From: an uncultured Gammaproteobacteria bacterium
Lineage (GTDB): Bacteria; Patescibacteriota; Microgenomatia; UBA10105; UBA927
Reading direction: 5' to 3'
Assembly (NCBI GenBank): GCA_964533995.1
Contig: CAZHOQ010000001.1
Coordinates: 1 to 52,254 of the forward strand
DNA length: 52,254 nt
In this document: piece after piece, positions 1,790 to 46,289 of the stretch
Numbering within the stretch: the first letter of the stretch is position 1
How the letters are laid out: every line of letters begins with the position of its first letter
Program-made: the position numbers and the translations under genes
The notes under the pieces: generated by a model
What the model saw: the letters and a program-made list of their open reading frames with translations, nothing else
Told to the model about the DNA's origin: nothing
Database searches by the model: none

Positions 1790-3511
1790 ATGATAAAAAA
1801 TGTTAAGCGGAACGTAAGTTGCCGTTTTTGTGCTATGAATCTGCCCGATGACATCGTCAAGAAAATACTGACCGACGCGTCGGTTATTCCGTCATCCGAG
1901 ATTGCCGAGTTGGAAACGCTTGCCAAGTCTTCCAATTCGACACTTGCGGATATAGTCAGGCAAAAGCGGATCGTTACGGAAGAGCACTTCGGCAAGCTTT
2001 TGGCTTCTCATTATGGCATCCCGTTTGTTAACCTCGCCAAAATAACCATTCCCGAGGCGGTCTACCGTATCGTTCCCGATAAATTCGCCAAAGCGCACAC
2101 ACTCATTCCGTTTGCGCGTGACACAACCGGGCTCAAGGTTGCGGTATCGGATCCTACGGATACAACGGCGATAGCTACGCTCGAAAAAAAGGCCGGACAG
2201 AAGGTGATTCCCCACTACGCGACCGAGCAGGATATCCGGACTGCTTTGAGGCTACACCGGCGGGATCTTACGACCCTGTTTGGCGAGCTCATGAAGAAAT
2301 ACCACAGTGAAGACGAGGCGCCGCTTGTTGCTATCGTGGACCTTCTCCTCCATACCGCCATCGATGAGAACGTTTCGGACATTCATATCGAGCCGCAGGA
2401 AAAGGATGCGTTGGTACGGTACCGGGTGGATGGCGTCCTTCATGACGTATTGCACCTTTCCAAGGTTATCCACCAGCGGGTCGTCTCACGCATCAAGGTG
2501 TTGGCCAATCTCCGGACCGACGAGCATTCCGCCCCGCAGGACGGAAAAGTACGGATACAGCACGACGAGCAATCCGTTGATATCCGTATTTCCATTATCC
2601 CCATGGTCGAAGGGGAAAAGATCGTCATGCGGTTACTGGTTGCCAATTTCCGGCTCGCCAACTTTTCCGATCTTGGGATGAATCCCAAAGCGGTCGAACT
2701 TGCGGAAAGTGCCCTCAGGCGCTCATACGGAATGATTCTTTCCACAGGACCGACAGGATCGGGTAAAACGACGACGATATACGCGATGCTAAAAAAATTA
2801 AACGTTCGGGAAAAAAACATCACAACGATCGAAGATCCGGTTGAGTACCGCATCAAGGGAGTCAATCAGATCCAGGTGAACCCCAAGACAAACCTGACCT
2901 TTGCCAACGGGCTGCGGTCAATTCTCCGTCAGGATCCCAACATCGTGTTCGTCGGCGAAATCCGTGACGCGGAGACGGCGGGGATAGCCATCAACGCAGC
3001 GCTCACGGGACACCTTGTGGTTTCGACCCTTCATACCAATGATGCGGCGACGGCGCTCCCACGGCTTATCGACATGCATGTAGAACCTTTTTTGGTTGCT
3101 TCGAGCGTCACGCTCATCATTGCACAGCGGTTAGTGCGGAAGATCTGCGATTACTGCCGTGTGTCGACAACCATTACGGAAGCGGAGCTAGCTAAGAACC
3201 TTCCTCCGTCCGTCATCAGCAAACACTATATCCCGGTAGGTGAGCAGCGGGAGATCCGTGTCTATAAGGGGGAGGGGTGCAAGAATTGCCGCTTTACTGG
3301 GTATGAAGGGCGGGTGGGCATCTATGAAGTGCTGCCCATCACCAAGGAAATCAGGGCGCTTATCACCCAGCATCAGGATGCCGACGTCATTGCAAGCCAG
3401 GCGATGAAGGAGGGCATGATTGCCATGTTGGATGACGGACTGGTGAAAGTATCCCAGGGGGTCACGACCATAGAAGAAATACTGAGGGTTACGAAAGTCG
3501 AATCGATATGA
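1790..3511 (+). CDS. pilB: Type IV pilus / type II secretion assembly ATPase (PilB/GspE family)
   Basis: Walker A GPTGSGKTTT, an N-terminal MshEN/T2SSE_N-like region, and a C-terminal CxxC...CxxC (CDYC...CKNC) tetracysteine. An alternative start at ATG 1835 (MNLPDD) is possible. Confidence 0.9.
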   Translation: MIKNVKRNVSCRFCAMNLPDDIVKKILTDASVIPSSEIAELETLAKSSNSTLADIVRQKRIVTEEHFGKLLASHYGIPFVNLAKITIPEAVYRIVPDKFAKAHTLIPFARDTTGLKVAVSDPTDTTAIATLEKKAGQKVIPHYATEQDIRTALRLHRRDLTTLFGELMKKYHSEDEAPLVAIVDLLLHTAIDENVSDIHIEPQEKDALVRYRVDGVLHDVLHLSKVIHQRVVSRIKVLANLRTDEHSAPQDGKVRIQHDEQSVDIRISIIPMVEGEKIVMRLLVANFRLANFSDLGMNPKAVELAESALRRSYGMILSTGPTGSGKTTTIYAMLKKLNVREKNITTIEDPVEYRIKGVNQIQVNPKTNLTFANGLRSILRQDPNIVFVGEIRDAETAGIAINAALTGHLVVSTLHTNDAATALPRLIDMHVEPFLVASSVTLIIAQRLVRKICDYCRVSTTITEAELAKNLPPSVISKHYIPVGEQREIRVYKGEGCKNCRFTGYEGRVGIYEVLPITKEIRALITQHQDADVIASQAMKEGMIAMLDDGLVKVSQGVTTIEEILRVTKVESI

Positions 3512-4557
3512 GTACACAGCGCCTGAGCGTCCCGAGTTCGGAAAAACTCGCCTTTTTTTCCAATATGTCGACGATGGTCAATGCGGGGCTGACGACTGCT
3601 GAGTCCATCAATTCTTTGCTTGAAGACGCCACCGGGGCCATGAAAATCGTGCTTACGGGTATAGCTGCGGATCTCAATCAGGGAAAACAACTTCATGTCG
3701 CCCTTGAGAAATATCCGAAGATATTCGACGGCGTTACCGTTGCGATCATCAAGGCTGCTGAAGAATCAGGAACCATCGATATCGTCCTTAAGGACATCAA
3801 GCAGACCGTCAAAAAGGATATCGAATTTAACGACAAGATCAAGTCGGCGATTACGTATCCCATCATTATCGTCATCGTTTTTTTGGGCGTACTGACCTTG
3901 TTATTGACGTTCGTCATTCCGAAAATCGCGAGCGTATTTTTGAAACTTAAAGTCGACCTTCCGCTCCCGACGAGGGTGCTTATCTTCCTTTCGGATCTTA
4001 TTTTGCACTATACGATACCGACGGCGGCGGTCTCCGGGGTCGTAATTCTTTTGGTTGTGTTGCTTTTCAAAACACAGAAAAAACTGGTGATGAGGTTTCT
4101 TTTAAGCTTACCGGTGGTATCCTCAATGGCAAGGCAAATTGACCTTACCAGATTTTCCCGCAGCATGTATCTGCTGCTGACGAGCGCGATCCCGCTCTAC
4201 ACGGCGCTTGAGTATTCCCAGGCGGTAGCGATGAAGCAGGAGGTAAAAGACGCGATCACCCGCGCCCGGGAGTCGGTCGGTACGGGGAAACGGGTAACCG
4301 ATGGGTTGCACGGGAACAAGGCGATTCCTTCCCTCATGCTCAAGATTATCGAAGTCGGCGAGCGGAGCGGAACGCTTGATAAGTCCATGGCTGACCTTAC
4401 CGAATACTTTGATTATCAGGTGACGACATCGCTTGCGTATATGATGACGCTTCTTGAACCCGTTATCCTGGTATTCGTGGGACTGGTCGTCGGCGGCATG
4501 ATGATGGCTATCATCGCGCCCATCTATAATCTTATCAGTCAGGTGGGAGCTACCTAG
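3508..4557 (+). CDS. pilC: Type IV pilus platform protein (PilC/GspF family)
   Basis: 349 aa with duplicated T2SSF-like helical segments and 3 TM helices. Its start overlaps the pilB stop (ATGA at 3508-3511). Confidence 0.9.
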   Translation: MSTQRLSVPSSEKLAFFSNMSTMVNAGLTTAESINSLLEDATGAMKIVLTGIAADLNQGKQLHVALEKYPKIFDGVTVAIIKAAEESGTIDIVLKDIKQTVKKDIEFNDKIKSAITYPIIIVIVFLGVLTLLLTFVIPKIASVFLKLKVDLPLPTRVLIFLSDLILHYTIPTAAVSGVVILLVVLLFKTQKKLVMRFLLSLPVVSSMARQIDLTRFSRSMYLLLTSAIPLYTALEYSQAVAMKQEVKDAITRARESVGTGKRVTDGLHGNKAIPSLMLKIIEVGERSGTLDKSMADLTEYFDYQVTTSLAYMMTLLEPVILVFVGLVVGGMMMAIIAPIYNLISQVGAT

Positions 4558-4931
4558 GGATTACCCATCGCCTCCCGAACGGCCGCAACAAGCATCGGCG
4601 GCAGGATATCCGCCTTGATAAGGTGACGGACCGCCCCCAGGCTCTTGGCGCGTTCGATGATCGGATCGTGGTCAAGGTTCGTAAGAAGCAGGATGGGGCC
4701 GTTCGGAGATTTCGCTGATGCTTCCTTAAGTTTTGTCAGGACTCCGACGCCGTCGAGTTTCGGAAGCATGACATCCAAAAGTACAGCCGCAAACCCGCCT
4801 TCGAGAAGTTTGGTTAATCCCTCCTGCCCATCGACCGCGGTGTCGATCTCAAAGCCTTCGTTTTGCAAAACTTCCGTATAGAGATCCCGGATATACGCGT
4901 CGTCGTCAACGATAAGGATGCGTTTCGACAT
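4554..4931 (-). CDS. Stand-alone response regulator receiver (CheY-like)
   Basis: MSKRILIVDDD...LLDVMLPKLDG...K has the canonical receiver acidic pocket and phospho-Asp context. The listed ORF was trimmed to ATG 4931 because the upstream 76 codons overlap the divergent gene and show no receiver similarity. Confidence 0.85.
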   Translation of the reverse strand: MSKRILIVDDDAYIRDLYTEVLQNEGFEIDTAVDGQEGLTKLLEGGFAAVLLDVMLPKLDGVGVLTKLKEASAKSPNGPILLLTNLDHDPIIERAKSLGAVRHLIKADILPPMLVAAVREAMGNP

Positions 4932-5007
4932 ACGAAACAATACTATCTCATAATTGTCATACGCACAAATTTCTTTCGTCGTGTGATATGATGCTGGGCA
5001 TTGGATC

Positions 5008-6675
5008 ATGAAACCGCAATCATTGGTTACTACTGACCGCACGATACATACCCCCCCCAGGTCCGTGACCGTTTCCGGAACCAAGCTTACCCTCGCGGAT
5101 ATGTTGGGTGTTGCAAGGGACGGCGCCCCGGTGTCGTTTACGAAAGACCGGCGCATCATCCGGAAGGTGGAGATATGTTATGAGCGCATGATGGAACAAG
5201 TGCGGGACGGCGTGCCGATTTACGGCTGCAACACGGGGTACGGCGCCCGCGCAGGGGTCGTGGTCAATTCGGGTACGGATAAGGAACGCATGGCGCAGGC
5301 CCGGTTGATTTCGGAAAGCATCGTGCATACGGACGTCACGGTTGGTCCGGAGTTGGGAAGTGACGTAACCAGGGCCGCAATGTTGATCCGCATTAATATG
5401 CTGCTGCAGGGAGTGTCGGCAGTACGTATTTCCGACCTCGACATATACCGCCGCATGTTAAATGAGCGGATTACCCCGGTGGTGCATGCCTACGGGGGGT
5501 TGGGCGCATCAGGCGATCTTGCGCATAATGCCCGGGTGTTGTCGGCCGCCCGTCAGCTTCCGGATACGTACGTTACGGATGCCGATGGCCGGCGCCATGA
5601 GGCGCGCACATTGCTCTCCTCGCATAATATCCCCAAGCTCGTGCTGGAACCGAAGGCGGGGCTTGGACTAGTCAATGGCGATAACTTTTCGACCGCCGCA
5701 GCCGCCCTCATCGCTTCGGACCTTATTTCTTACATGCTGATCGAGGATGTATTGGGAGCGATGGTAATCGAGGTGCTGAAGGGGTCAAACAGGGCGTTCC
5801 ATCCGTTTTTGACCGACATCCGGCCGCATGAGGGGCAGCGGGAAGTCGCAACAGTGTACCGGGGGCTTCTTGAGGGGAGTAAGCTCGCATATCAGGAAAT
5901 GCGCGGACATGTCCGGCGTCCGCCCGGAGTCAAAGTACAGGACGCGTACAGCTTGCGGTGCATTTCCCAGGCCGAGGGCATTAACCGCGAACAGATGCAA
6001 TGGATCATTGAAAAGTTGGAAACGAACGCGAATTCCGTATCGGATAACCCCCTCTGGGTTGCGCCGGAATTTGCGACGGATGGCGAATCGCCATGGCAAT
6101 GGGTGAGTGGTGGCAATTTCTTAGCCCAACACGCGGGAGAGTCGATAGATATGATGCGGAAGATCATAACCCGATATGTGAAGCGGAATGACCGGCACCT
6201 GCATCGGTTGGTAAGCCCTCACGAAAGCAATGGTCTTCCGCCGAATCTTTCGGACGCTCAGGCCATTTCCGCGTGCGCCTTCAAGGGGATGCAATTACAG
6301 TCGGGTATGCTTGACGTGTATTCCATGACGCTTGCGACACCGGTCACGACGCTTTTTGGGATCCATGAGGAATCGAACCAGGACATTACCGTTCATTCAC
6401 TCACCTCCGCAATCATGGCCTGGCAGAATTTGGACCTGTTGCGGTATTCTATGGCCATGACGCTCATCGCCGTAGCACAGGCTGTTGATCTTCGCGGCGG
6501 AGGGAAGCTTTTGGCACCAAGGACGCGGCCGGTCTACGAATTCATCAGGGAGCGGTCGCAGTACGTATCCCGGGAACGTCCGTTGGCATCCGACATCCGG
6601 GCAGTAGCCCGTTCGATTGAAACGGGCGAGCTTTCAAAACTCGTGAGAAAACGTGTGACAAAGGGAATGCCATAA
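5008..6675 (+). CDS. MIO-dependent aromatic amino acid / histidine ammonia-lyase or aminomutase family protein
   Basis: The Ala-Ser-Gly MIO-forming triad sits in GGLGASGDLAHNA. It also carries NTGYGARAG, KAGLGLVNGDNFS and RPHEGQ, all in the order typical of the HAL/PAL/TAL family. Substrate cannot be read from the sequence by eye. Confidence 0.8.
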   Translation: MKPQSLVTTDRTIHTPPRSVTVSGTKLTLADMLGVARDGAPVSFTKDRRIIRKVEICYERMMEQVRDGVPIYGCNTGYGARAGVVVNSGTDKERMAQARLISESIVHTDVTVGPELGSDVTRAAMLIRINMLLQGVSAVRISDLDIYRRMLNERITPVVHAYGGLGASGDLAHNARVLSAARQLPDTYVTDADGRRHEARTLLSSHNIPKLVLEPKAGLGLVNGDNFSTAAAALIASDLISYMLIEDVLGAMVIEVLKGSNRAFHPFLTDIRPHEGQREVATVYRGLLEGSKLAYQEMRGHVRRPPGVKVQDAYSLRCISQAEGINREQMQWIIEKLETNANSVSDNPLWVAPEFATDGESPWQWVSGGNFLAQHAGESIDMMRKIITRYVKRNDRHLHRLVSPHESNGLPPNLSDAQAISACAFKGMQLQSGMLDVYSMTLATPVTTLFGIHEESNQDITVHSLTSAIMAWQNLDLLRYSMAMTLIAVAQAVDLRGGGKLLAPRTRPVYEFIRERSQYVSRERPLASDIRAVARSIETGELSKLVRKRVTKGMP

Positions 6676-6676
6676 T

Positions 6677-8158
6677 ATGCGCCTCACCACGGATACGTCG
6701 TTGCTCCGTTCATGGCTGGTACAAAAGGATAGCGGCACAAACAGGAGCGAATCAGCTTCACGGTATGAGACAGCCGGGAAACGAAAGGCACTGGCTTTAT
6801 TCCATGCGGCAGCAAAACAAGTCCCCGCGTATAAGGAATTTTTGCGGAAGAATTCCGTTAAACCCGGTCAAATCAAAACATATGCCGATTTCTTAAAGGT
6901 TCCCGTAACGACGAAGCAAAACTATATTGAGGCGTATGACGTTTGGGACCGCGTTTGGAGCGGGGCACCCGCCGGGACCACCATGATTTCGACCAGCTCG
7001 GGAACGACCGGCGCCCCGCATTATTGGCCCCGGTCAATGCGGCACGATCTTGACGGCGCTGCCGCCCATGAATTTTTTCTTACGAGCATATTCGGCATCG
7101 AGAAAATCCCCACCCTGTTTGTGAACGGGTTTGCCATGGGCAACTGGATAGCGGGCACCTTCACGTATATGTCCGCTTCTTTGGTTGCGTGGAAGGGATA
7201 CCCCTTGACGGTTATGACGCCCGGGTACGACCGGGATGCCGTGATCCGCGTGATCACGGAGGTTGCCCCGCGTTTTGCGCAGGTCATCATTACCGGCCAT
7301 ACGCCGTTTTTAAAGGAAGTCGTGGAAGGGATGCATGCAAGCGGACTCCACAAAAAAGTGTCCTGCAAGCTGTTAGGGACCGGGCAGGGAGTGACTGAGG
7401 GCTGGCGTGACTACATCACGAAGCTTGTCGCCGGCACTGATTCTTTTCGGACGTTTATTAATCTGTACGGATCTGCGGACGCGTCCCTCATGGGATTTGA
7501 AACGCCCGTTTCCATCGCCATACGGAAAGCCGTTGCATCCGCGGGTGATGAAAAGATATTTGGGACCAACCGTCTTCCGTCGCTCTATCAATACGATCCG
7601 AGACTGACGTTTTTTGAGGGAGTAGAAAATGAGCTCTGTATTACCAAAGACAGCGGCGTGCCGCTTATACGGTACAACATTCATGACACCGGGGGTGTCC
7701 GGTCCTATTCCAAGCTTCGTGGAGTGATTTCCGGCGACGATATTGCGGGGCAATCCCGAAAGTACCCCTGGCAGCTTCCGTTTGTGTATCTGTTTGGTCG
7801 TGAGAAATTTATGGTGAAGGTGTACGGGGCAAACATCTATACGGAGCACGTGCAGCGGGCTTTGGATCATGAACGGCTCGTTGGGAATATTACGGGGCGG
7901 TTTTTGCTTGTGACGGCCGAGGATGATCAGAATAACCCCGTTCTTTTGGTCCGGATTGAGCTTCGCGAAAACGTATCCCGCGACATCGGGTTTGCGAGCC
8001 TCATTCGGGATGTCTTTGTCGAGGAGGTGGGGAGGATTAACAGCGAATACCGCTTCGTGCTTTCCTCGATGGGACCAAAGGCCCATCCGAAAATCGAACT
8101 TCATGCATTCGGCGACCCTGAATATTTTCCTAAAGGAGTCGTCAAGAAAACGGTATGA
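6677..8158 (+). CDS. Adenylate-forming enzyme, PaaK / coenzyme F390 synthetase-like (ANL superfamily)
   Basis: TSSGTTGAPHYWP matches the SSGTTG(K/A)P AMP-binding motif. LYGSADAS and IRYNIHDTG fit later ANL core motifs. The start is 1 nt after the upstream stop. Confidence 0.65.
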   Translation: MRLTTDTSLLRSWLVQKDSGTNRSESASRYETAGKRKALALFHAAAKQVPAYKEFLRKNSVKPGQIKTYADFLKVPVTTKQNYIEAYDVWDRVWSGAPAGTTMISTSSGTTGAPHYWPRSMRHDLDGAAAHEFFLTSIFGIEKIPTLFVNGFAMGNWIAGTFTYMSASLVAWKGYPLTVMTPGYDRDAVIRVITEVAPRFAQVIITGHTPFLKEVVEGMHASGLHKKVSCKLLGTGQGVTEGWRDYITKLVAGTDSFRTFINLYGSADASLMGFETPVSIAIRKAVASAGDEKIFGTNRLPSLYQYDPRLTFFEGVENELCITKDSGVPLIRYNIHDTGGVRSYSKLRGVISGDDIAGQSRKYPWQLPFVYLFGREKFMVKVYGANIYTEHVQRALDHERLVGNITGRFLLVTAEDDQNNPVLLVRIELRENVSRDIGFASLIRDVFVEEVGRINSEYRFVLSSMGPKAHPKIELHAFGDPEYFPKGVVKKTV

Positions 8159-9036
8159 GTAACTTTTCCTCACCCAAGAGCCGGTTCCAACAGGCAACGA
8201 ACAGAAACCGGCTCCTCGTGACGCGTCCGGAGCAGGAGACGCTCCGCCGCGCGACCGTCGGTTTTTTCGGCTTATCGGTCGGGAGCCACGCGGCAACGAC
8301 CTGGGCGATGCTCGCAAGACCTAATGCGATAAAAATCGCCGATCCTGATGTCATTGACGCAACCAATTTGAACCGCATCCGGGTCGGTTGGTCTCAGGTC
8401 GGCAAGCGGAAAGTCGATGCTGTGTCCGAACTCCTTGCCGATATACATCCGGAAATGACCATAGATGCGCTGACGGACACGTCACCTGCCTCCATGGAGA
8501 CATTCTGCCGGAAAAAATCCGCCGTCTCGTGCATCGTGGACGAGATTGACGACATCGGCGGGAAAATTACCCTCCGGCAGATAGCCCGGAAGATGCGCAT
8601 ACCCCTTATTTCAGCGGTCGACGTCGGGGAAAACGTGCTGCTTGATGTCGAGCGGTATGACCGCAATGCGGATCAGCAGATGTTTTTGGGGAGATTGCCG
8701 GGTATCGAAATGATCGATGTTGCCGCACTTGATAAGAATGAGCGGGCACGATTGATCATCGCGCTTGTGGGGCTTACCCATAACAGCGATGCAATGCTCA
8801 CGTCATTATTGGAAATTGGCAAATCGATCGATACGTGGCCGCAGCTTGGGAGCACCGCAACCATTGCGGGAGGCGTCATCGCTACGACCGTAAAGCGCGT
8901 GTTGTTGGGCGACCGCGTTTCCTCAGGGAGGTACGTGTTTGAAATGGATGCGCTCTTGGGGAAAATCCCCACGATTTCCGAGCGACGCCATACCCGGACA
9001 CTCATGTCCGCCGTCAAACGGCGGTTTGGCGTATAG
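8155..9036 (+). CDS. ThiF/MoeB/HesA-type E1-like adenylyltransferase family protein
   Basis: A Rossmann-type VGFFGLSVGSH is followed by DPDVIDATNLNRI (the ThiF DxD..SNLNR pattern). ATGA start/stop overlap with the upstream gene at 8155-8158. Confidence 0.7.
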   Translation: MSNFSSPKSRFQQATNRNRLLVTRPEQETLRRATVGFFGLSVGSHAATTWAMLARPNAIKIADPDVIDATNLNRIRVGWSQVGKRKVDAVSELLADIHPEMTIDALTDTSPASMETFCRKKSAVSCIVDEIDDIGGKITLRQIARKMRIPLISAVDVGENVLLDVERYDRNADQQMFLGRLPGIEMIDVAALDKNERARLIIALVGLTHNSDAMLTSLLEIGKSIDTWPQLGSTATIAGGVIATTVKRVLLGDRVSSGRYVFEMDALLGKIPTISERRHTRTLMSAVKRRFGV

Positions 9037-9054
9037 CCGTGATACTATAGTGGT

Positions 9055-11274
9055 ATGCTGCCCATCGAGTTATTAAGTGTCATCATCGCGAGCATTGGGA
9101 ACATTTTCCTCGGTCTGTTTACGTTCTTCAAAAATCCCAAAAGTGCAACCGGAAAATTATTCCTGAGTTTTACCTTATTGCTGGCGCTTTATATCGGCTT
9201 AAATTATGCCGCAACGCATCAGGCGACGGATGCGGCCGCTTCAGTGTTCGTCAGGGTTGTTATGAGCAATGCCGTGCTTATCAACCTCTTCTTTTACTTG
9301 TTGGTCGATACGTTTCCTCAGGCAAAAATCAGGACGAGCAAGCTTATTTTCTGGTCTTCGGTCATTGTGAGCGTCATTCTCGTTCCTATTACTTATCTGT
9401 TCATATTCGAGCAGGTAACCATAACAAACGGTTCCATTAAGACGTTGCCCGGGCTGGCAATGTCTGCCTTCCTGCTGCACACGCTTGTATACGTAGCCGG
9501 CGGTTTCCTGTGGCTAATTCATCGGTATAGGAAGTCCCGCGGGATAGAAAAGACACAGCGGCGTTTTTTCCTGGTCGGTACGGTATTTATGTTCGTATCG
9601 CTTTTGGTTACGAATCTTGTGTTTGTCGTTTTATTCAACAATGCGACGCTGGTGGGACTGCTTCCCTTATATACGCTCGTGTTTGTCGGATGCATCAGTT
9701 ACGCCATGGTCCGCCACAGGTTTCTGGACATCAACGTACTGGTTATCCGCGTTGTCGTGTACTCCGTGCTCATTGCCCTGGTCGCCATTCTCTTTACGGT
9801 TCTCGTCTCCCTCGTAGGACAGACGATATTCCCCATACAATTCACCCAGGAAGAACAGCTCATTCTTATTGGCACGACGGTTATCGTGAGTTTGCTTTTC
9901 CAGCAGGTGAGACATGCCATCGAGCGGATAACCGACCGGATTTTTTTTAAAGGCCGGTATGTCACCAATGACGTTTTAAGTGAACTGTCCCATATCATGG
10001 CTTCGACGTTGCGCCTTGAGGATTTGACCCATGGCCTTCTGGAAACATTACTGGCGGAGCTTCGTATCGGGAAAGGAGCGATAATCCTCCTCCAGGAAGG
10101 GAACGTGACCGGCGTGTTAAGCGAGGGATATGATCCGTTCCCAACCATCGACGAATCCCGCATCCGCGTTGCCTTGTCGGCCCGCAAGACGCTCAATGCC
10201 GACGAACTTGAAGACGGTCCGGTAAAAGACGCCCTTACGTCATTGGAAGCGGTGACGCTCGTGCATTTACGGAGCGAAGGGAAAGAAATAGGAGTGCTTG
10301 TTCTCGGGGCAAAATCCTCAGGCGACATTTACTCGTCGCAAGATCTCTCCTTGCTGGAAATTCTTGCGCCGGAGGCCGCAGTTGCCGTTCAGAATGCGCT
10401 TTCCTATGAGGAAATCCGCCGATTCTCGATCACCCTCCAGGACGAAGTGACGCGGGCAACGGAGGATCTGCGGAAGGCGAATGTCAGGCTTCAGGAATTG
10501 GACAAGCTTAAAGACGAGTTCGTTTCGCTTGCATCCCACGAGCTCCGGACGCCGCTGACGGCCATCCGTTCCTACATATGGATGGCGCTTTCCGGCAAAG
10601 GGGGCGAATTAAATGAAAAACAGACATATTATCTGGACCGCTCCTTCACCTCGACCAACAGGCTTATTAAGCTCGTCAACAGCATGTTGAACATATCAAG
10701 AATAGAGTCGGGACGCATGGCAATATCGTTTAAACGGGGAACCGTGGCCTCCTTAATCCAGACGGCACTTGACGAAATCCAGCCAAAAATCGTGGAGTTG
10801 GGACTTGTGGTTGTTCCCCGCGTGGGGACCGGCCTTCCCGACGTTATCGCGGATCCGGACAAAATCGCGGAAGTGCTTATGAATTTTATCGGGAACGCAA
10901 TGAAGTTTACGCCGAAAGGCGGAACGATAACGATCCAGGCGATACCCGAAGGGTCCTTTATACGGATTTCGGTGACGGATACCGGGGTCGGGATCGCAAA
11001 AGAGGACCTCTCTAAACTGTTTACGAAATTCGGAGCGCTCCGGTCCGGATCAACGCCTGAGGCAATTGCCGCGCAAAGCACGGGCTTGGGACTGTATATC
11101 AGCAAGTCCATTATAACCATGCACGGCGGGAACGTCTCTGCGATGTCTGACGGGTTGGGGAAGGGATCGACGTTTAGTTTTACCCTGCCGGTTTTCTCTG
11201 AGGAAAAAATTCAGGCACTTCAGGGGCAATATAAGACCGAGGGGTTGGGAATCATCCACAACACCATTGAATGA
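9055..11274 (+). CDS. Sensor histidine kinase: N-terminal 7TM region, GAF-like domain, HisKA, HATPase_c
   Basis: About 7 hydrophobic helices in the first ~290 aa. H-box SHELRTPLTAI. N, G1 and G2 boxes (NFIGNAMKFTP, DTGVGI, GLGLYISK). Confidence 0.9.
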   Translation: MLPIELLSVIIASIGNIFLGLFTFFKNPKSATGKLFLSFTLLLALYIGLNYAATHQATDAAASVFVRVVMSNAVLINLFFYLLVDTFPQAKIRTSKLIFWSSVIVSVILVPITYLFIFEQVTITNGSIKTLPGLAMSAFLLHTLVYVAGGFLWLIHRYRKSRGIEKTQRRFFLVGTVFMFVSLLVTNLVFVVLFNNATLVGLLPLYTLVFVGCISYAMVRHRFLDINVLVIRVVVYSVLIALVAILFTVLVSLVGQTIFPIQFTQEEQLILIGTTVIVSLLFQQVRHAIERITDRIFFKGRYVTNDVLSELSHIMASTLRLEDLTHGLLETLLAELRIGKGAIILLQEGNVTGVLSEGYDPFPTIDESRIRVALSARKTLNADELEDGPVKDALTSLEAVTLVHLRSEGKEIGVLVLGAKSSGDIYSSQDLSLLEILAPEAAVAVQNALSYEEIRRFSITLQDEVTRATEDLRKANVRLQELDKLKDEFVSLASHELRTPLTAIRSYIWMALSGKGGELNEKQTYYLDRSFTSTNRLIKLVNSMLNISRIESGRMAISFKRGTVASLIQTALDEIQPKIVELGLVVVPRVGTGLPDVIADPDKIAEVLMNFIGNAMKFTPKGGTITIQAIPEGSFIRISVTDTGVGIAKEDLSKLFTKFGALRSGSTPEAIAAQSTGLGLYISKSIITMHGGNVSAMSDGLGKGSTFSFTLPVFSEEKIQALQGQYKTEGLGIIHNTIE

Positions 11275-11777
11275 AGCGAGGTATGAAACGGTCATCCAAA
11301 ATATTCAGTCGGGGAGCCAGCCTAATAGAACTACTGTTGGTTATGGCAATAATCGGGGTATTTGCCCGGCTTATTACCCTTAATTTGTTCCGCGGGCAGC
11401 AGCGGACATCGATAACGGTAACAAGGGATACGGTTGTTTCCGATCTGCGGCGGACCCAGCTTCAGGCGATGCAGGGGGAGACGGAATCCCCGGGATCGTA
11501 TCTTGATTATTCCATCCGTTTTGAAGAGGGGCGTTATATCATTTTTCCCGGTTCAGTGTATGATGCCGGCAATACGGCCAATCAGGTCGTTGCGCTCGAC
11601 CCGATTTTGAGTTTTTCTTCCATTGACCTGCCGTTTTCCATGATTACGTTTGCGCGGTTGAGCGGTGACATTCGGGATTTTGATTCCATACTCAATCACG
11701 TAACCCTCACCAACGCGCAGACCGGTGATAGTTACCGGCTGACATTTAATGAGCGCGGCATTCCGTTTATCGAGTGA
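11271..11777 (+). CDS. Pseudopilin / minor pilin (GspH/FimT-like) with prepilin-type N-terminal signal
   Basis: G|ASLIELLLVMAIIGV is a class III signal with Glu at +5. ATGA overlap with the kinase stop (11271-11274). Confidence 0.75.
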   Translation: MKRGMKRSSKIFSRGASLIELLLVMAIIGVFARLITLNLFRGQQRTSITVTRDTVVSDLRRTQLQAMQGETESPGSYLDYSIRFEEGRYIIFPGSVYDAGNTANQVVALDPILSFSSIDLPFSMITFARLSGDIRDFDSILNHVTLTNAQTGDSYRLTFNERGIPFIE

Positions 11778-11781
11778 TTAT

Positions 11782-12294
11782 ATGAAACGATTGCGCCGCG
11801 ACAGCGGTTTTACATTAATAGAGCTCACCATGTATGGTGGTTTATTGGGTATTCTTCTGGTTATCTTGAGCGAGTTCTTCGTGACGATTGTCGGAACCCA
11901 GCTCAAAACCAGTGTCGATGCGGCTATGAATTATGACAGCGCATACTTATTAGCGAGAACGACCTATGACATCCGGCGTTCCGTAGCTATCCAATCGCCT
12001 GCGGTTGGCGCATCCGCGAGCGCACTCGTGCTGACGGTTGAAGACGGAGGGACGGATAAAACCTACCAGTACGCGGTGACAAACGGCAATCTGATGCTCA
12101 CGATTGATTCCCAAACGACACAGCTCAATAGTAGCAATTCCGCGGTAACGGACTTTTCCGTCACCCGCATCGGTAATTCCGCAAGCAACCCTTCGGCAAA
12201 GGATACGGTGGGCGTCCAGTTCACCCTGGGGGCAGTTGCGAGCGTATCGGGAGACAGGGAGCGGCGGTTTTCGACCACGGTAAGTTTACGATGA
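11782..12294 (+). CDS. Pseudopilin / minor pilin with prepilin-type N-terminal signal
   Basis: MKRLRRDSG|FTLIELTMYGGLLGILL. Trimmed to ATG 11782, which lies 4 nt after the upstream stop. Confidence 0.7.
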   Translation: MKRLRRDSGFTLIELTMYGGLLGILLVILSEFFVTIVGTQLKTSVDAAMNYDSAYLLARTTYDIRRSVAIQSPAVGASASALVLTVEDGGTDKTYQYAVTNGNLMLTIDSQTTQLNSSNSAVTDFSVTRIGNSASNPSAKDTVGVQFTLGAVASVSGDRERRFSTTVSLR

Positions 12295-12683
12295 AACAAA
12301 CGTCATATCATCTGAATTCCGGACAGGCGGTAGTCACCGTGCTTTTTGTCGTGGTGATCGGCATGCTGGTGACAACCGGGGCAGTTATGACGCTTCTCAA
12401 CGCCTATCAGTCGTTGACGAACCAGGAACTCGGGCGTGAGGCGTTTGCGGCGGCGGAGGCCGGCGTTGAAAACGGTATGCTACGCTTGCTTCGGGACACG
12501 TCGTATACTGGAGAGACGATCACATTTCCGGGAGGAAAAACCGCCGTTGTCACGGTCGTTCAGTCGCCGGATATTGTTATGGTATCGACGGGGACGGTAA
12601 ATAACGTCTCCCGGAAAATTCAGGTGAACGCGCATATCACGGATATGAATATTATCGTCGACACATGGAGGGAGATTCCGTAA
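12291..12683 (+). CDS. PilX-like minor pilin candidate / pilus-locus hypothetical
   Basis: N-terminal hydrophobic helix after SG|QAVVT, with no Glu+5. ATGA overlap with the upstream gene. Confidence 0.5.
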   Translation: MKQTSYHLNSGQAVVTVLFVVVIGMLVTTGAVMTLLNAYQSLTNQELGREAFAAAEAGVENGMLRLLRDTSYTGETITFPGGKTAVVTVVQSPDIVMVSTGTVNNVSRKIQVNAHITDMNIIVDTWREIP

Positions 12684-12696
12684 GCATGGCAAACGT

Positions 12697-13359
12697 ATGA
12701 GCGCATTACTTATTCACAAACGGAACGCAATTCTTGTCCAGTTTACCGACCGGGAGGGAAGCGCGACTATCCCGCTTCCTTTGGAGGCGCTTTCCGATAT
12801 GGATGTGACGAGTGAGGAAGCCTACCTGGCGTCCGTGGGTAAAGTGCTGGGGAAGAAAGTGAGCCCGACCGTTCCTGCCGTGCTCGTCATTGCCGATGAA
12901 CTGTGTTACGTGGCGCAGGCGGCACCCGCGGAAGTGGAAGCAAAAACAAAGGAGCTTATTTCCAACACGCCGTTTACCCATGTGGAAACCGTGACGATCA
13001 AAACCCCGAAATTGTCGTATGTTATCGCGACGAATGCGGATATCTACGAAGCCGCGGTGCGGGTTTTCGATTCATATGGGTATGCAATCACGACCGTGAT
13101 TCCGTGGGCGGCCCTTACCTTTCATAAGGTGAGTGCCGGGGGGGAAATTGACCGGGTTACGGTGAAGCGAACGTTTGACGCGCTGGGGACCCTCAAATCA
13201 TACTCGTTTCCCCTGAGCGCCCATGAGCATGCTGAAGCGGAGGCTACTCCCGCGCCTTCATCTGACAAGCGTAAATCGTTGCCCGTCGGCTGGATTATAT
13301 TCGGCGGATTTGCCCTCCTGTATGCCATCGGCATGATGTGGTTCATGACACGCCAATGA
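12697..13359 (+). CDS. Pilus-locus hypothetical protein with C-terminal TM anchor
   Basis: 220-aa ORF with a C-terminal helix (GWIIFGGFALLYAIGMMWF). It sits between pilin-like genes. No recognisable family. Confidence 0.5.
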   Translation: MSALLIHKRNAILVQFTDREGSATIPLPLEALSDMDVTSEEAYLASVGKVLGKKVSPTVPAVLVIADELCYVAQAAPAEVEAKTKELISNTPFTHVETVTIKTPKLSYVIATNADIYEAAVRVFDSYGYAITTVIPWAALTFHKVSAGGEIDRVTVKRTFDALGTLKSYSFPLSAHEHAEAEATPAPSSDKRKSLPVGWIIFGGFALLYAIGMMWFMTRQ

Positions 13360-16292
13360 GAGACACGCTTCAGTCCGGCCAGTTTATCGTCGAGCTTCTT
13401 GTCGCGATCGGGCTCATGCTCGTTATTCTTCCTCCCCTTACGTATATCATGATTGCCAGCCGGGAGAGCAAGCCCATGCAGGACGTGCGGGTTGCGGCAA
13501 ATACGATGTTGCAGGAAACCTATGAAGCAATGCGAAGCGTCCGTGAGCGCGGATGGAGTTATGTCGCAACCAATGGTACGTACTATCCGGTTGCAAGTGG
13601 CGGAGTGTGGGGTCTTAGTAGTGGTACCGAGGTCGCAGGGGATTTCACCCGGCAGGTAACGATAGGCGATGTGTATCGCGATTCTAACGGCGTGATAGTC
13701 GCAAGCGGCGGGACGCTCGATCCGTCGACGAAAAAAATTGACGCGACGATTTCCTGGACCATTCCATCGGTGTCTTCCATTTCGTCTACATGGTATCTTT
13801 CGCGGTACGTCGGTAATTCTTCGGTCGTGCATACCACGGAGGCGGATTTTTCGACAGGTGTCTTATATAACACGCAAGTTGCCAATACCCTGGGCGGGGA
13901 AATCATGTTGGCAAACAATAACAGGGGAAAATGGTGCAGTCCGTCGTTTTCCCAAACCGCAATCGACCTGCCCGACGGACCGCCTGTAGCGGTCGTTGCG
14001 ACGGCGAGCGCTTCCGTGGGTACACCCAATGACGCGTTTGTCGCCACGGCACCCGTAACATCCAGTTCGATCAAAATGGCGTACGTCAACGTCACCGCGG
14101 ATACCGAAAATCCGCAAGCGACGCTCCGGGGGATATTTACGTTGGATCCGGCTCAGTACAGCTCAGGAGCGCTCGTGCCGACCGGAATCAACCTGGATAA
14201 TACGTTCAAAACAAATGACATTAAGTACTACAAATCCGCTGCCGGAAAAGTGTATGCCCTGATGACGACCAATTTGCCGGACAAGGAAGTCATTGCCGTG
14301 CAAGTCAATGACGGCTCCGGGGATAGCTTTCAGGACCCGGTCAATAAGATTTACCGGTATTGGACCTATTTCAATACCAGGATGTACAGCACCGCATTCA
14401 ATAACCCGTCTGCGCAGGCGGCGGAAACGAGTAATGCGGGGGACAATAACGGGTTTCAGACGAGTAGCACCAATGCATATACCCTCAATGGATCATATGC
14501 AACGGACACCAACAGCGGCAGCGGCACGGGAACCGGGTGTACCGGAACCGACAAGGATAAGCATCAGTTTTACGATTACGACTTTTCTCTTCCGGCCGGG
14601 GCAACAATCGACGGCATTGAAGTGCAGGTGTCCGCACGCGTTGACGGTACGTCCGGATCTCCCAAGATGTGCGTATCGCTATCCTGGGACGGTGGAGTGA
14701 CGTGGTCTACCCCGCAATCGACGCCAACGCTCACGACGAGTAACACTGCCTATACCCTCGGAGGAGCAAGTGATACCTGGGGAAGAGCATGGAACGATGC
14801 GGAGTTTTCCAACGCGAACTTCCGGCTCCGGGTTGCAAACGTTGCAAGTAGCACGTCCCGGGATTTTTCACTTGATTACGCCGGCGTGAAGGTGTACTAC
14901 GACGGCGTTTCGACCGTGCCCAACGATCAGGATCCGTTCGGCTACGGGCCGCGGACACTGACCATCCTTGGAGACCGGGGATACGTGGCAGCGGGCGGGT
15001 ATCTCTACGTTTTCGATTTGACGAATATTGATGCCAAATCATCGGGAAGCGGATTAGACCAGCTCGGGTGCCGGATTCAGCTGGACGGATATGACTGCAG
15101 TCCGGGGACCGGTACCGATCGCAAATACGCTGCGGGGGAAACAGGCGCCTCATGGTCAGATACGACGGGCCCCGCCCACAATGACTGTTCGGACGGCGGT
15201 AATATCGAATTGTTTGCAACCAACCATATCGACGGGGTGACCGTCGGTGGGAACAATTACATTTACGTTGCCGTCGGCGCGGGGACCAATCCTGAATTTG
15301 CCATCGTGAATGCCACAAGCGTCCCTGACGGAGGTTCAAGTCCGTCCATTTCGAATACAAGCTGCGGCAGAATATCGGGGGGGAACGCCGGGTGGAAGCG
15401 GATCAGCTCGTATGATTTCAATTCCGCCTCCGGCACGGAGGAAGCGGCAAACTCTGTGTATGCCGCGGCTGACGGCGCGCGGGCATACATTTCCTCAAAC
15501 GGCGGCATTGACGGGAATGGGGATTTGGAGCCCGACAGCAAGCAATGGTACATCATCAATACGGCGAACAAATCCAGTCCGGCATTTTTGAGCGGATCGC
15601 CGTCAACGGGGGCGACGAGCGGATTCTATGAAGCAACAAGTACTGCGGATTTGCAGCTCTATCCCCGGCGATCGCTTACGGTACTCAATAAAAGCAGGGC
15701 CGTTCTTGTCGGCAGTGACGGGGTGAGCGACGGCAATGATGCCAGAGAATACCAGGTGCTCAATATCGACAACGAGGCAACACCGCTGTATTGCGGCGGA
15801 TTGAATTTCAATCAGGGGTTTAACGATCTTACGAGCGTTTCCGAGGCTGATGGGGACAACTATGTGTATATGGTTGCCAATACGGTCGACAAACAGCTAA
15901 AAGTAATCGAGGGCGGACCCGACACCGGCTTGTATTTAACTCCGGGCACATACGAATCGCCGGTTGTCGATGTCGGCGGATCTGCCGCGCTGAACCGGTT
16001 CTCTGGTGCCGTCAGCCTTCCGGCGTCGACAAATATCCGCGTACAGGTTGCCAGCGCTGCTCCCGTGGGAGGAAGCTGTTCATCGGCGTCATATTCCTAC
16101 ATCGGTCCGGATGGAACGAACGGGACGTTCTTTACGCCGGTCGGCAGCACGGTTTCCGCGAGCATGCCCGTGGGCACCTATGGAGGATATACGAATCCGA
16201 ACCAATGTTTCCGGTACAAGGTCTTTATGGAGACGACGGACACCAATCAAACACCCGTGCTGTATGATATGGGGGTCAATTATTCCCCGTGA
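13356..16292 (+). CDS. Giant pilin-like protein (about 978 aa) with prepilin-type N-terminus; putative pilus tip or adhesin subunit
   Basis: MRDTLQSG|QFIVELLVAIGLML is a class III signal with Glu+5. ATG 13356 overlaps the upstream TGA (ATGA); the listed start at 13338 is a GTG. The remainder is Gly/Ser/Thr/Asn-rich and beta-type. Confidence 0.7.
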   Translation: MRDTLQSGQFIVELLVAIGLMLVILPPLTYIMIASRESKPMQDVRVAANTMLQETYEAMRSVRERGWSYVATNGTYYPVASGGVWGLSSGTEVAGDFTRQVTIGDVYRDSNGVIVASGGTLDPSTKKIDATISWTIPSVSSISSTWYLSRYVGNSSVVHTTEADFSTGVLYNTQVANTLGGEIMLANNNRGKWCSPSFSQTAIDLPDGPPVAVVATASASVGTPNDAFVATAPVTSSSIKMAYVNVTADTENPQATLRGIFTLDPAQYSSGALVPTGINLDNTFKTNDIKYYKSAAGKVYALMTTNLPDKEVIAVQVNDGSGDSFQDPVNKIYRYWTYFNTRMYSTAFNNPSAQAAETSNAGDNNGFQTSSTNAYTLNGSYATDTNSGSGTGTGCTGTDKDKHQFYDYDFSLPAGATIDGIEVQVSARVDGTSGSPKMCVSLSWDGGVTWSTPQSTPTLTTSNTAYTLGGASDTWGRAWNDAEFSNANFRLRVANVASSTSRDFSLDYAGVKVYYDGVSTVPNDQDPFGYGPRTLTILGDRGYVAAGGYLYVFDLTNIDAKSSGSGLDQLGCRIQLDGYDCSPGTGTDRKYAAGETGASWSDTTGPAHNDCSDGGNIELFATNHIDGVTVGGNNYIYVAVGAGTNPEFAIVNATSVPDGGSSPSISNTSCGRISGGNAGWKRISSYDFNSASGTEEAANSVYAAADGARAYISSNGGIDGNGDLEPDSKQWYIINTANKSSPAFLSGSPSTGATSGFYEATSTADLQLYPRRSLTVLNKSRAVLVGSDGVSDGNDAREYQVLNIDNEATPLYCGGLNFNQGFNDLTSVSEADGDNYVYMVANTVDKQLKVIEGGPDTGLYLTPGTYESPVVDVGGSAALNRFSGAVSLPASTNIRVQVASAAPVGGSCSSASYSYIGPDGTNGTFFTPVGSTVSASMPVGTYGGYTNPNQCFRYKVFMETTDTNQTPVLYDMGVNYSP

Positions 16293-16295
16293 GCC

Positions 16296-16323
16296 TTGAC
16301 AAACACGAATTCCTTCTTATAAG
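16296..16323 (+). promoter_or_regulatory. Sigma70-like promoter candidate for the major pilin gene
   Basis: TTGACA (16296-16301), a 16-nt spacer, then TATAAG (16318-16323). GGAGG at 16352-16356 lies 10 nt before ATG 16367. Confidence 0.45.
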
Positions 16324-16366
16324 CTGGATACATCTGTAAAATGTCCAAAAAGGAGGGACGCTGCCT

Positions 16367-16819
16367 ATGAAAAAGAATAAAGGTTTCACGCTCATCGAGC
16401 TACTTGTCGTCATCGGTATTTTGGCGATCTTATTGGCTATCACATTGATTGCAATTAATCCGGCCAGGCAATTCGGTCAGGCCAACAACACCAAGCGCAG
16501 AAGCGACGTGTTACAGATTCTTAACGGCATCCATCAATATGTCGCCGAGAATCAGGGACAGCTTCCCGCCGAAGTCAGCGGATTGACCGCGGACGCAAGG
16601 CTTATGTTCAACAGCGGAAACTTCCCGAACCTTTGCGGACAGCTGATGACGAATTACCTGCCGGCCTTGCCGACGGATCCGTCACTCAACACGTCCAATA
16701 TAACGAGCTGCACGGGAACGTGGAGCACGGGATACGAAATTTCCCGCGATAGCGCAAACCGCATCACGGTATTGGCGCCGACGACCGATAACGCGGCATC
16801 CATTTCCGCAACCCGGTAA
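16367..16819 (+). CDS. pilA: Type IV major pilin
   Basis: MKKNKG|FTLIELLVVIGILAILLAI is a canonical prepilin leader and helix. Size is 150 aa. It has its own promoter, RBS and terminator. Confidence 0.85.
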   Translation: MKKNKGFTLIELLVVIGILAILLAITLIAINPARQFGQANNTKRRSDVLQILNGIHQYVAENQGQLPAEVSGLTADARLMFNSGNFPNLCGQLMTNYLPALPTDPSLNTSNITSCTGTWSTGYEISRDSANRITVLAPTTDNAASISATR

Positions 16820-16844: not shown

Positions 16845-16874
16845 CCCAGCCCCGAAAGGGGCTGGGTTCGTTTT
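16845..16874 (+). terminator. Rho-independent terminator between convergent pilA and typA
   Basis: Stem cccagcccc (16845-16853), loop gaaa, stem ggggctggg (16858-16866), then ttcgtttt. The T-tract is good only for the + strand. Confidence 0.7.
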
Positions 16875-29126: not shown

Positions 29127-29684
29127 TCAGAAGGTATCGCGCTGAGAAATTTCATCGATCGTACGCTTGCTTCTTGCCGACTTCGGGAAGTTATTCGCGT
29201 CATAATTCGGGATTGCATACAGATCCTTATGTTTAAGAAGGAGCCAGGCGTTTTTGGGGCCGAATCCGTGTGTTTTGATAAGGGCGTACGAACCCTTAAG
29301 TTTTTTGCCATGGAGGACGAATTTCAGTTCTCCGCGTTTGAGACCTTCCCGCATCACTTCTTTTGCCTTGAGTGGATTTATTACCTCTTCCCGGTTACCC
29401 TTGCCAATGTCCCGTTCCGCAACATAGGTTCCCTCGTCCCAAATCATGACAGCTCCTGCGCCGGGTTCATTTTCCGGAATAACGCCTTCGAAGTTTCTAT
29501 AATCCATATCGTGTTCCGTGGTTTCCATGGCTAACCGCTTGACGGATGGATCCAAGGAAGGACCTTTGGGAATCGCCCAGGACGGCAAGGCGTCGCCAAT
29601 TTCCAGACGGAGGTCGTAATGCGGTCGAACGGTTGCATGCTTATGGATGACAAAGGCAAAGTGGTGCTGTTTTCCGGTTTTCAT
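29127..29684 (-). CDS. Stand-alone DNA ligase D 3'-phosphoesterase (LigD-PE) domain protein
   Basis: FVIHKHATVRPHYDLRLEIGDALPSWAIPKGPSLDP...TEHDMDYRNFEGVIP is the LigD-PE signature. ATG 29684 overlaps the upstream stop (ATGA). Confidence 0.85.
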   Translation of the reverse strand: MKTGKQHHFAFVIHKHATVRPHYDLRLEIGDALPSWAIPKGPSLDPSVKRLAMETTEHDMDYRNFEGVIPENEPGAGAVMIWDEGTYVAERDIGKGNREEVINPLKAKEVMREGLKRGELKFVLHGKKLKGSYALIKTHGFGPKNAWLLLKHKDLYAIPNYDANNFPKSARSKRTIDEISQRDTF

Positions 29685-31066: not shown

Positions 31067-31070
31067 ACAA

Positions 31071-46242: not shown

Positions 46243-46289
46243 CCGGTTATAATAAACGGGAATTTTAGCAGATTATTTGTGAGTTATAA

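Follow-up and report, generated by a model that had tools for sequence, protein, structure and literature searches.

What do three tightly packed enzyme genes make, and why do they adjoin a sensor histidine kinase amid type IV pilus genes? We asked this of a cassette at positions 5008 to 9036 of the window, meaning the whole 52-kb stretch analyzed here, which is the source contig of a Patescibacteria metagenome-assembled genome (MAG) and supplies all coordinates given without a locus name. Our verdict is that the cassette, which encodes an aromatic amino-acid lyase, an adenylate-forming ligase and a ThiF-like cyclase, looks like a variant of the known oxazolone pathway, joined to a two-component system and to pili in a way not described before. 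The genes that carry the argument are as follows, with open reading frames abbreviated as ORFs and transmembrane as TM.

4554-4931, minus strand: CheY-like single-domain response regulator of 125 aa with no DNA-binding domain (Pfam Response_reg, 4e-19)
5008-6675, plus strand: 4-methylideneimidazole-5-one (MIO)-dependent aromatic amino-acid ammonia-lyase of the "class A" cassette type, with a signature like that of tyrosine ammonia-lyase (TAL) (Lyase_aromatic, 2e-106)
6677-8158, plus strand: divergent PaaK-fold adenylate-forming ligase of 493 aa (AlphaFold/Foldseek match to PaaK1; no Pfam match)
8155-9036, plus strand: ThiF-like ATP-dependent cyclase of predicted oxazolone-synthetase (Rv1355c/TrzS, OxzB) type (Pfam ThiF, 2e-18; NCBIfam Rv1355c family, 191 bits)
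9055-11274, plus strand: sensor histidine kinase with seven TM helices (7TM), two further hydrophobic helices, a cytoplasmic GAF domain, HisKA and HATPase_c (Pfam; AlphaFold)

The last enzyme of the cassette points to the pathway. When we compared the window ThiF with NCBIfam models, its 191-bit match to the Rv1355c family covered model positions 89-349 of 722 and the next family reached 58 bits, with only 32-46 bits for the ThiF and MoeB models. The sequence DPDVIDATNLNRI, which holds the DxD..NLNR motif, lies at residues 63-75, and an unusual GLSVGS nucleotide loop, NLNR and WPQLG are common to the window ThiF and Rv1355c-family members. It is 29% identical to a Rhodococcus protein of this family (E 2e-31) and 32% identical to a ThiF-oxidase fusion from locus L091, described below (E 3e-40). 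The nearest solved structures are those of TcdA, the tRNA ct6A dehydratase, which also closes an oxazolone ring after adenylation (PMC12596934); TcdA acts on tRNA, however, and its NCBIfam model scores the window ThiF at 32 bits compared to 191 for the Rv1355c family. In relatives of the cassette, a gene of about 365 aa after ThiF matches the other half of the Rv1355c model (positions 370-717, 186-193 bits) and also the Acg family of flavin oxidoreductases. Rv1355c itself is TrzS, a fusion of ThiF cyclase and flavin oxidase that converts N-acyl tryptophan to an oxazolone (PMC12856293), and OxzB and TyzB/TyzC carry out the same conversion on N-acyl tyrosine (bioRxiv 10.1101/2020.06.11.147165; PMC10404671). 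Together, these homologies indicate that the window ThiF is equivalent to the cyclase portion of the oxazolone synthetases (OxzB, TyzB, TrzS) and not a generic E1 enzyme. A first-pass annotation made from the letters of the stretch had assigned the gene to the right family, ThiF-type enzymes, but did not recognize this specific cyclase type.

We also compared the ThiF of a related cassette (L061) with 72,556 plasmids and found 16 matching records. Fifteen were actinobacterial, annotated as Rv1355c family (9), as ThiF family adenylyltransferase (4) or not at all (2), and the sixteenth was a weak, partial match in Rhizobium. A GNAT gene followed the ThiF adenylyltransferase in one inspected plasmid record of four.

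Proteins, peptides or tRNA are the substrates of most characterized ThiF-like enzymes (PMC12596934), which raises the alternative that the window ThiF acts on a macromolecular carboxylate, such as that of a peptide, a pilin or the kinase C-terminus, in the style of MccB, PaaA or E1, with the ligase serving as an aryl-acid coenzyme A (CoA) ligase only (FlxY/PaaK-like) and no free oxazolone being formed. The fold and the weak sequence matches of the ligase are indeed those of CoA ligases, and the window lineage is without the oxidase. On the other hand, the window ThiF groups with the small-molecule Rv1355c family and not with the ThiF, MoeB or MccB models, none of the residues that at least 90% of 60 ThiFs have in common is a Cys, and 80 loci have no conserved gene for a ubiquitin-like or ThiS-like protein or for a precursor peptide. 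Moreover, no Patescibacteria locus holds an acyltransferase, and in-frame fusions of ligase and ThiF imply that the two catalyze consecutive steps. We therefore consider this alternative unlikely. The first-pass annotation had left open a small molecule or a protein modification as the product; our results support its proposal that the cassette builds a small molecule, with an aromatic amino acid as the starting material, and while a protein modification is still conceivable, nothing among them argues for it.

Two related candidates were set aside. The E1/ubiquitin-like and sulfur-carrier readings were dropped for want of a partner gene and a conserved Cys. A RiPP, a peptide made by ribosomes and modified after translation, was likewise dropped, since the gaps of the cassettes hold divergent oxidases, methyltransferases and lineage-specific ORFs with no common small ORF.

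A bridging locus connects the window lyase to the characterized pathway. On a GC-rich (62%) non-Patescibacteria scaffold, L091 encodes, in order, a lyase, a ThiF-oxidase fusion, a FeeM-family N-acyl amino-acid synthase, a FadD-type CoA ligase and a quinone-reductase-like gene. The fusion, 776 aa long, passes the Rv1355c-family cut-off (764 bits compared to 476). The L091 lyase is 55% identical to the window lyase and has Phe where the latter has His (AISFVDVSVGP versus SIVHTDVTVGP), the classical Phe/His switch column. Judged by its gene content, L091 is a canonical oxazolone pathway fed by the same lyase family as the window. We then looked for the acyl-transfer genes of this pathway among all ORFs of the window and of the first 86 related loci with phmmer, and there were zero matches to FeeM, GNAT, TrzA-like or FadD-like proteins. 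Since these genes are missing from the Patescibacteria loci, the PaaK-fold ligase is predicted to replace both the CoA ligase and the acyltransferase.

A second locus outside Patescibacteria, L006 (6328-14887 of an 8.78-Mb ENA contig from a large-genome organism), encodes lyase, ligase, ThiF and oxidase, with cytoplasmic PAS hybrid kinases on both sides of the cassette in place of the 7TM kinase. Actinobacterial oxazolone clusters also sit beside signaling genes (PMC12856293). In Rhodococcus qingshengii plasmid pLP1 (L088, 1626-5950), we observed an Rv1355c-family gene beside a GGDEF-domain gene, which echoes the cyclic di-GMP genes that adjoin trzAS in Mycobacterium tuberculosis (PMC12856293).

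To determine which genes belong together, we called ORFs in 86 related loci, labeled them with phmmer and counted genes within 6 kb of the ligase in the 47 loci whose flanks were full, reaching at least 4 kb upstream and at least 6 kb downstream. ThiF was present in 43/47 and the kinase in 43/47, followed by the regulator (27/47), the flavin oxidase (at least 25/47), the lyase (23/47) and pilB (7/47). The oxidase count is an underestimate, because most of the 1-kb "gaps" of Saccharibacteria loci are a divergent antisense oxidase of Acg type. Ligase, ThiF and 7TM kinase occurred together in 43 of the 47 loci, and among the four loci without ThiF and kinase are the ones whose titles name Chloroflexia and Syntrophobacterales. 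The gene set persists across lineages even though its order is shuffled. The same pattern of ligase, ThiF and kinase holds in L089, L090, L092 and L093; L089 and L090, which were spot checks reached from lyase homologues on 0.95- and 1.13-Mb contigs, contain the same set with pilB, pilC and the regulator alongside. Thus, the conserved core is the ligase, ThiF and the kinase, and not the trio with the lyase. The first-pass annotation had centered on that trio, whose genes do co-occur widely, but whose lyase is found in only 23/47 loci compared to 43/47 for the core; its link to signaling and pili gains support from co-occurrence far beyond one genome.

Nearly every homologue of the middle protein, the ligase, comes from Patescibacteria (Woese-, Gottesman-, Davies-, Beckwith- and Roizmanbacteria, Saccharibacteria and Parcubacteria). 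A pattern scan with one genome per species found a relative of the ligase in at least 225 of 185,579 species-representative genomes, and an exhaustive profile search gave 988 clusters at 50% identity (E ≤1e-30). The arrangement recurs in dozens of species and is not due to chance. Many loci from "binchicken" MAGs (L007, L009-L011, L016 and others) have Patescibacteria-like gene content despite titles naming Gammaproteobacteria or Pseudomonadales, and these titles are unreliable for taxonomy. Single-linkage clustering of neighbors was polluted by antisense shadow ORFs and by chaining through fusions, and we used it only to seek extra conserved families. No exporter is conserved in the cassette neighborhood across the related loci.

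Gene fusions and displacements in relatives link the enzymes further. We found in-frame fusions of lyase and ligase (L033), of ThiF and oxidase (L025) and of ThiF and ligase in both orders (P0370, P0375), as well as a ScyB-like aromatic amino-acid dehydrogenase fused to the ligase in several MAGs (P0476) and a dehydrogenase-ligase-ThiF fusion (P0383). In the Parcubacteria loci L092 (4986-12237) and L093 (4962-12901), the genes are an oxidase, a dehydrogenase-ligase(-ThiF) fusion, (ThiF), an alpha/beta hydrolase and the 7TM kinase. Where the lyase is missing, a ScyB-like dehydrogenase abuts the cassette in L048 and L030, and a class I/II aminotransferase, always divergent and adjacent, is found in eight loci. 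Lyase, dehydrogenase and aminotransferase are thus interchangeable routes from an aromatic amino acid to a carboxylic acid, and this interchangeability identifies the substrate class of the ligase as an aromatic-derived carboxylic acid. In addition, S-adenosylmethionine-dependent methyltransferases lie inside three cassettes (L026, 10084-10794; L028, 11504-12319; L074, 12500-13216), which suggests lineage-specific tailoring of the product.

Which amino acid does the window lyase deaminate? The protein matches PF00221 over its full length (356.8 bits, cut-off 27.3, profile positions 1-466), carries the MIO triad ASG at residues 167-169 and has the catalytic Tyr, Asn and Tyr-x-x-Arg, with PIYG, VNGD and QDAYSLRC kept in 33/33 cassette lyases. 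It falls below all NCBIfam equivalog cut-offs, scoring 282 bits compared to 524 for histidine ammonia-lyase (HAL), 263 compared to 519 for phenylalanine ammonia-lyase (PAL), 227 compared to 501 for tyrosine aminomutase (TAM) and 170 compared to 700 for FlxA, and its top PDB matches are cyanobacterial PALs. At selectivity switch position 1, His107 aligns with Phe107 of the Anabaena PAL (AvPAL/NpPAL), in a stretch with gaps near the column that make the alignment good but not beyond doubt. At the position of HAL Glu414, all 33 of the 33 cassette lyases have Gln, reading NQD in place of the QED of HAL. Since His at switch position 1 and Gln instead of Glu at the HAL Glu414 position are the published criteria for a TAL (PMC3992019), the signature of the window lyase is tyrosine-type and not histidine-type. 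The earlier proposal of a His, Phe or Tyr lyase therefore stands as to the MIO family and not as to histidine, the inspected selectivity residues (the His switch and NQD) being those of the tyrosine type. A second lyase class, found in Parcubacteria, is about 50% identical to the tyrosine 2,3-aminomutase SgTAM. The HAL/urocanate reading was dropped for all cassette lyases, every one of which has NQD instead of QED.

The ligase is a divergent member of its fold. It has no Pfam match, AMP-binding included. Its AlphaFold model (pLDDT 88.9, pTM 0.88) matched PaaK1 in Foldseek (2y27, E 5e-23, TM-score 0.69/0.79), which corresponds to the two-domain PaaK fold, and also matched NatL2 and AjiA1, PaaK relatives that form esters or amides. 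When a profile of the ligase family was compared with the PDB, it reached PaaK only at 5e-14. The SSGTTG P-loop lies at residue 107, and YGSADA, YNIHD and GREKFMVKVYG are conserved. The phenylacetate-CoA ligase equivalogs gave 26-30 bits with cut-offs of 646-700, and the best NCBIfam match was a weak, N-terminal one to FlxY (30 bits, cut-off 520). The ligase thus has the PaaK fold and is not a PaaK orthologue.

Automatic names in public records, "histidine ammonia-lyase" and "phenylacetate-CoA ligase", would instead make the locus a coincidental neighborhood of catabolic genes, a HAL of histidine utilization and a PaaK of phenylacetate breakdown. The scores, however, are far under the cut-offs of these families (282 bits compared to 524 for HAL, 26-30 compared to 646 for PaaK), the HAL-specific Glu is Gln in the cassette lyases, no hut or paa genes lie nearby, and the conserved synteny and fusions already refute coincidence. 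We give this explanation practically no credence.

We next considered the kinase, since its near-constant position beside the cassette makes it the first candidate receptor for oxazolone-class molecules. It has the features of class I histidine kinases (HisKA, 1e-16; HATPase_c, 6e-24; H-box HELRTP with His495). When residues 1-459 were modeled with AlphaFold (pLDDT 82.8), the structure comprised seven TM helices, a short hairpin, two more hydrophobic helices and the GAF domain, which Foldseek confirmed. The external loops are tiny, and the conserved polar residues N27, N50, Q168, Y216, H221, D225 and R232 lie inside the membrane region. The 7TM part drew only generic, weak matches resembling G protein-coupled receptors (E about 2e-3), which point to no ligand site. 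In the GAF domain, the conserved residues are K420, which is near-invariant, S422, G423 and D430. A single ORF in L072 (11466-13829) joins ThiF and the 7TM part; the rest of that kinase is fragmented, possibly by an assembly frameshift, and we did not rely on it.

A TAL-type lyase signature, GAF and PAS kinases beside the cassettes and bilin-binding photosensor kinases among the top Foldseek matches of the GAF domain recall photoactive yellow protein (PYP), whose chromophore TAL and the ligase would supply by loading a p-coumarate thioester onto the kinase. However, the only kinase Cys, C213, lies in a TM helix and is not conserved, and no Cys column is kept in 43 orthologues. Neither ThiF nor the oxidase takes part in PYP maturation, and half of the loci lack the lyase. 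The first-pass annotation had noted that the GAF domain lacks Cys and had called a PYP-style thioester unlikely; both statements agree with these data, and we regard a PYP-like photoreceptor as very improbable.

4-Arylidene-oxazolones are textbook synthetic precursors of imidazolinone chromophores of the green fluorescent protein (GFP) type, which form on reaction with amines. A reactive oxazolone might not be a free ligand but acylate the kinase, for example at GAF Lys420, a speculation to which we assign a low probability. If so, the sensor could receive from a p-coumaroyl or aryl-acryloyl oxazolone either an extended, covalently bound chromophore of the GFP/Kaede-like kind or a ligand that stays for good, and pili in Patescibacteria would be controlled by a class of photoreceptor not known before or by a kinase that is primed covalently.

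Where would a signal from this kinase go? The regulator has no output domain (Pfam), and the pilus genes and putative transcription signals around the cassette were the following.

1790-3511, plus strand: PilB/GspE-type pilus assembly ATPase with an N-terminal MshEN domain (Pfam T2SSE, 7e-125, and MshEN, 3e-19; NCBIfam pilB/gspE, about 540 bits)
3508-4557, plus strand: PilC/GspF-type platform protein (Pfam T2SSF, 2e-42; NCBIfam GspF/PilC)
4925-4954, plus strand: promoter-like site in the 76-nt divergent intergenic region, on weak evidence (TCGACA-18-CATAAT, 10/12 matches)
11271-16292, plus strand: five overlapping or abutting genes with prepilin-like hydrophobic N-termini, resembling minor pilins or pseudopilins (N-termini read directly; weak GspH, prepilin and PilX_N/GspK matches)
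16367-16819, plus strand: major-pilin-like gene with the classical type IV pilin N-terminus MKKNKGFTLIELLVV (N-terminus read directly; PF07963 N_methyl on the source contig)
16845-16866, both strands: terminator-like hairpin after the major pilin, with a 9-bp stem and 8 GC pairs (hairpin scan)

PilB and PilC adjoin the cassette in many Microgenomates, and in a Jorgensenbacteria genome (L049, 14638-16377) PilB has an N-terminally fused receiver domain, the fusion gene lying directly 3' of the cassette kinase and 5' of PilC. The lack of an output domain, the receiver-PilB fusion and the recurrent pilB/pilC neighborhood together point to PilB as the target of the regulator.

The junctions tie the cassette closely to kinase and pilins. 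One nucleotide separates the lyase TAA from the ligase ATG, the ligase TGA overlaps the ThiF ATG (ATGA, 8155-8158), an 18-nt gap lies between the ThiF TAG (9034-9036) and the kinase ATG at 9055, and the kinase TGA (11272-11274) overlaps the ATG of the first prepilin-like gene at 11271. On the other side, the divergent regulator starts at 4931 (MSKRILIVDDD), 76 nt from the lyase start. Prepilin-like N-termini occur on six genes 3' of the kinase, up to 16819, and relatives of the window have N_methyl-domain genes at the same place. ORFs and junctions reproduce exactly the packing, the 18-nt gap, the kinase-pilin overlap and the divergent CheY-like gene of the first-pass annotation, and its ASG, SSGTTG and DxD..NLNR motifs in lyase, ligase and ThiF are confirmed. 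Since the hairpin at 16845-16866 is the only strong terminator-like one 3' of the lyase start, the layout is suggestive, though only suggestive, of one long transcription unit over 5008-16819.

From what was observed, namely the families and folds of the proteins, their motifs, the order and conservation of the genes and the fusions, we infer the chemical steps, the ligand-receptor relation and the pilus output as follows. The MIO lyase would convert tyrosine to p-coumarate, as its active-site signature suggests. The PaaK-fold ligase would adenylate p-coumarate and couple it to an amino acid at the amino group, so that an N-acyl amino acid results; it would thus do the work for which the known pathways use a CoA ligase and a FeeM/GNAT N-acyltransferase. 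ThiF, judged by its homology to OxzB, TyzB and TrzS, would adenylate the carboxylate of the N-acyl amino acid and cyclize it to a 5(4H)-oxazolone (azlactone), which an Acg/TyzC-type flavin oxidase would then desaturate in many relatives, the window lineage being without an oxidase gene. The product, lipophilic and rather labile, would be the ligand of the adjacent 7TM-GAF kinase. The kinase would phosphorylate the CheY-like regulator, which would act on the PilB ATPase by protein contact and tune type IV pilus activity. The whole would form a synthase-receptor module of the quorum-sensing kind. Overall, we judge this account, an oxazolone-pathway variant of Patescibacteria type whose product is sensed by the 7TM-GAF kinase with output through the CheY-like regulator to PilB, to be about evenly poised between right and wrong.

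Several points weigh against this account. Its evidence is solely homology and gene context. With 30 bits, the ligase barely matches the PaaK and FlxY models, and no PaaK-family member is known to make N-acyl amino acids. FlxY, the closest characterized analogue in logic, is a CoA ligase (PMC3992019), and it is possible that an acyltransferase is encoded beyond the 52-kb window. A lyase and an aminomutase are indistinguishable by sequence. We found no flavin oxidase (nitroreductase superfamily) ORF at 9036-9055 or elsewhere in the window, so the window lineage would make a saturated, hydrolysis-prone azlactone or use ThiF in another role. Adjacency of the kinase may stem from co-inheritance or from regulation of something else, and L091 has no kinase. 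The counts of promoter-like and terminator-like sites in the window were not above shuffled expectation, and these scans leave co-transcription unproven.

The same oxazolone or N-acyl-amino-acid product might, on the other hand, not be a kinase ligand at all, serving instead as an exported effector or antibiotic or as a reactive acyl donor that modifies the envelope, the pilins or the host surface, with kinase and regulator co-inherited or controlling pili independently. Oxazolones are electrophiles with half-lives of hours (bioRxiv 10.1101/2020.06.11.147165), and N-acyl tyrosine relatives are reported to be antimicrobial (PMC12856293). The pilin genes directly 3' of the kinase in the window, the alpha/beta hydrolase between ThiF and kinase in L092 and L093, and the kinase-free pathway of L091 would also fit. 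Yet the kinase adjoins the cassette in 43/47 loci across Microgenomates, Saccharibacteria and Parcubacteria despite shuffled orders, and kinases adjoin it in L006 too, whereas pilin adjacency is limited to a subclade and no conserved exporter lies nearby. We find this explanation tenable but rather doubtful.

How does the proposed synthase-receptor module compare to known systems? The OxzAB (Pseudoalteromonas rubra), TyzACB and TrzAS (M. tuberculosis) pathways share with the cassette a ThiF-like ATP-dependent cyclase of the same NCBIfam family, the use of aromatic amino-acid building blocks, a neighborhood of signaling genes and, in relatives of the window, an adjacent or fused flavin oxidase of Acg/TyzC type. 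Unlike these pathways, the cassette has a PaaK-fold ligase in place of the FeeM/GNAT N-acyltransferase, and its predicted source of the acyl group is not a fatty acyl-CoA but an aromatic acid that the lyase, dehydrogenase or aminotransferase produces in situ. The window lineage further differs in lacking the oxidase, in its tight link to a 7TM-GAF kinase, a CheY-like regulator and pilus genes, and in its Patescibacteria host. FlxA/FlxY of flexirubin synthesis are a precedent for TAL with a PaaK-like coumarate ligase (PMC3992019), and, like these and the TAL and p-coumarate ligase (pCL) of PYP, the cassette pairs a TAL-type lyase with a predicted adenylating enzyme for p-coumarate. However, FlxY and pCL make a CoA thioester for a polyketide synthase or for Cys attachment, whereas the cassette has neither polyketide synthase nor Cys acceptor and its next enzyme is the ThiF cyclase. 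As in CqsA/CqsS, LuxM/LuxN, AgrBD/AgrC and RpfF/RpfC, synthesis genes adjoin a multi-TM histidine kinase with minimal external loops, and the chemistry diversifies between lineages through tailoring genes. In contrast to those modules, the enzyme families and sensor domain are unrelated, and the probable output is PilB through a CheY-like regulator and not transcription.

In the paper library that we searched, none combined oxazolones with Patescibacteria or with a histidine kinase, in keeping with the first-pass annotation, which did not recognize the combination as described. The discovery of oxazolone natural products dates only from 2020-2025, and what they do in the cell has been called "a major unresolved question" (PMC12856293); the papers on them state as much and speculate about signaling. 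The cassette offers oxazolones a candidate receptor and output in the 7TM-GAF kinase, the CheY-like regulator and PilB, and it leads us to predict both a CoA-independent route to N-acyl amino acids on a PaaK-fold enzyme and a family of aryl-acyl oxazolones. Patescibacteria are considered to be nearly without secondary metabolism, and they need type IV pili to find and hold host cells. If the proposed account is true, Patescibacteria would gate their pili with a small-molecule signal of their own making, and this would be the first proposal of chemical communication in the group.

Other features of the window were noted in passing. Within the pilin operon, a 984-aa ORF (13338-16292, plus strand) has a prepilin-like hydrophobic N-terminus and no Pfam match, which makes a giant minor pilin or a tip adhesin conceivable. 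No RNA genes turned up when the window was scanned with Rfam and for tRNAs. A berberine-bridge-enzyme (BBE)-like flavin adenine dinucleotide (FAD) oxidase (FAD_binding_4 and BBE domains; 29681-31180, minus strand) lies 20 kb from the cassette, unlinked to it, and is the only other oxidase noticed in this lineage without a cassette flavin oxidase. Finally, GC content drops to 0.37-0.40 at 42000-48000 compared to about 0.52 elsewhere; this low-GC region, which may be an acquired island, includes a 1425-aa ORF (41965-46242, plus strand) with only a weak HEAT-repeat match.

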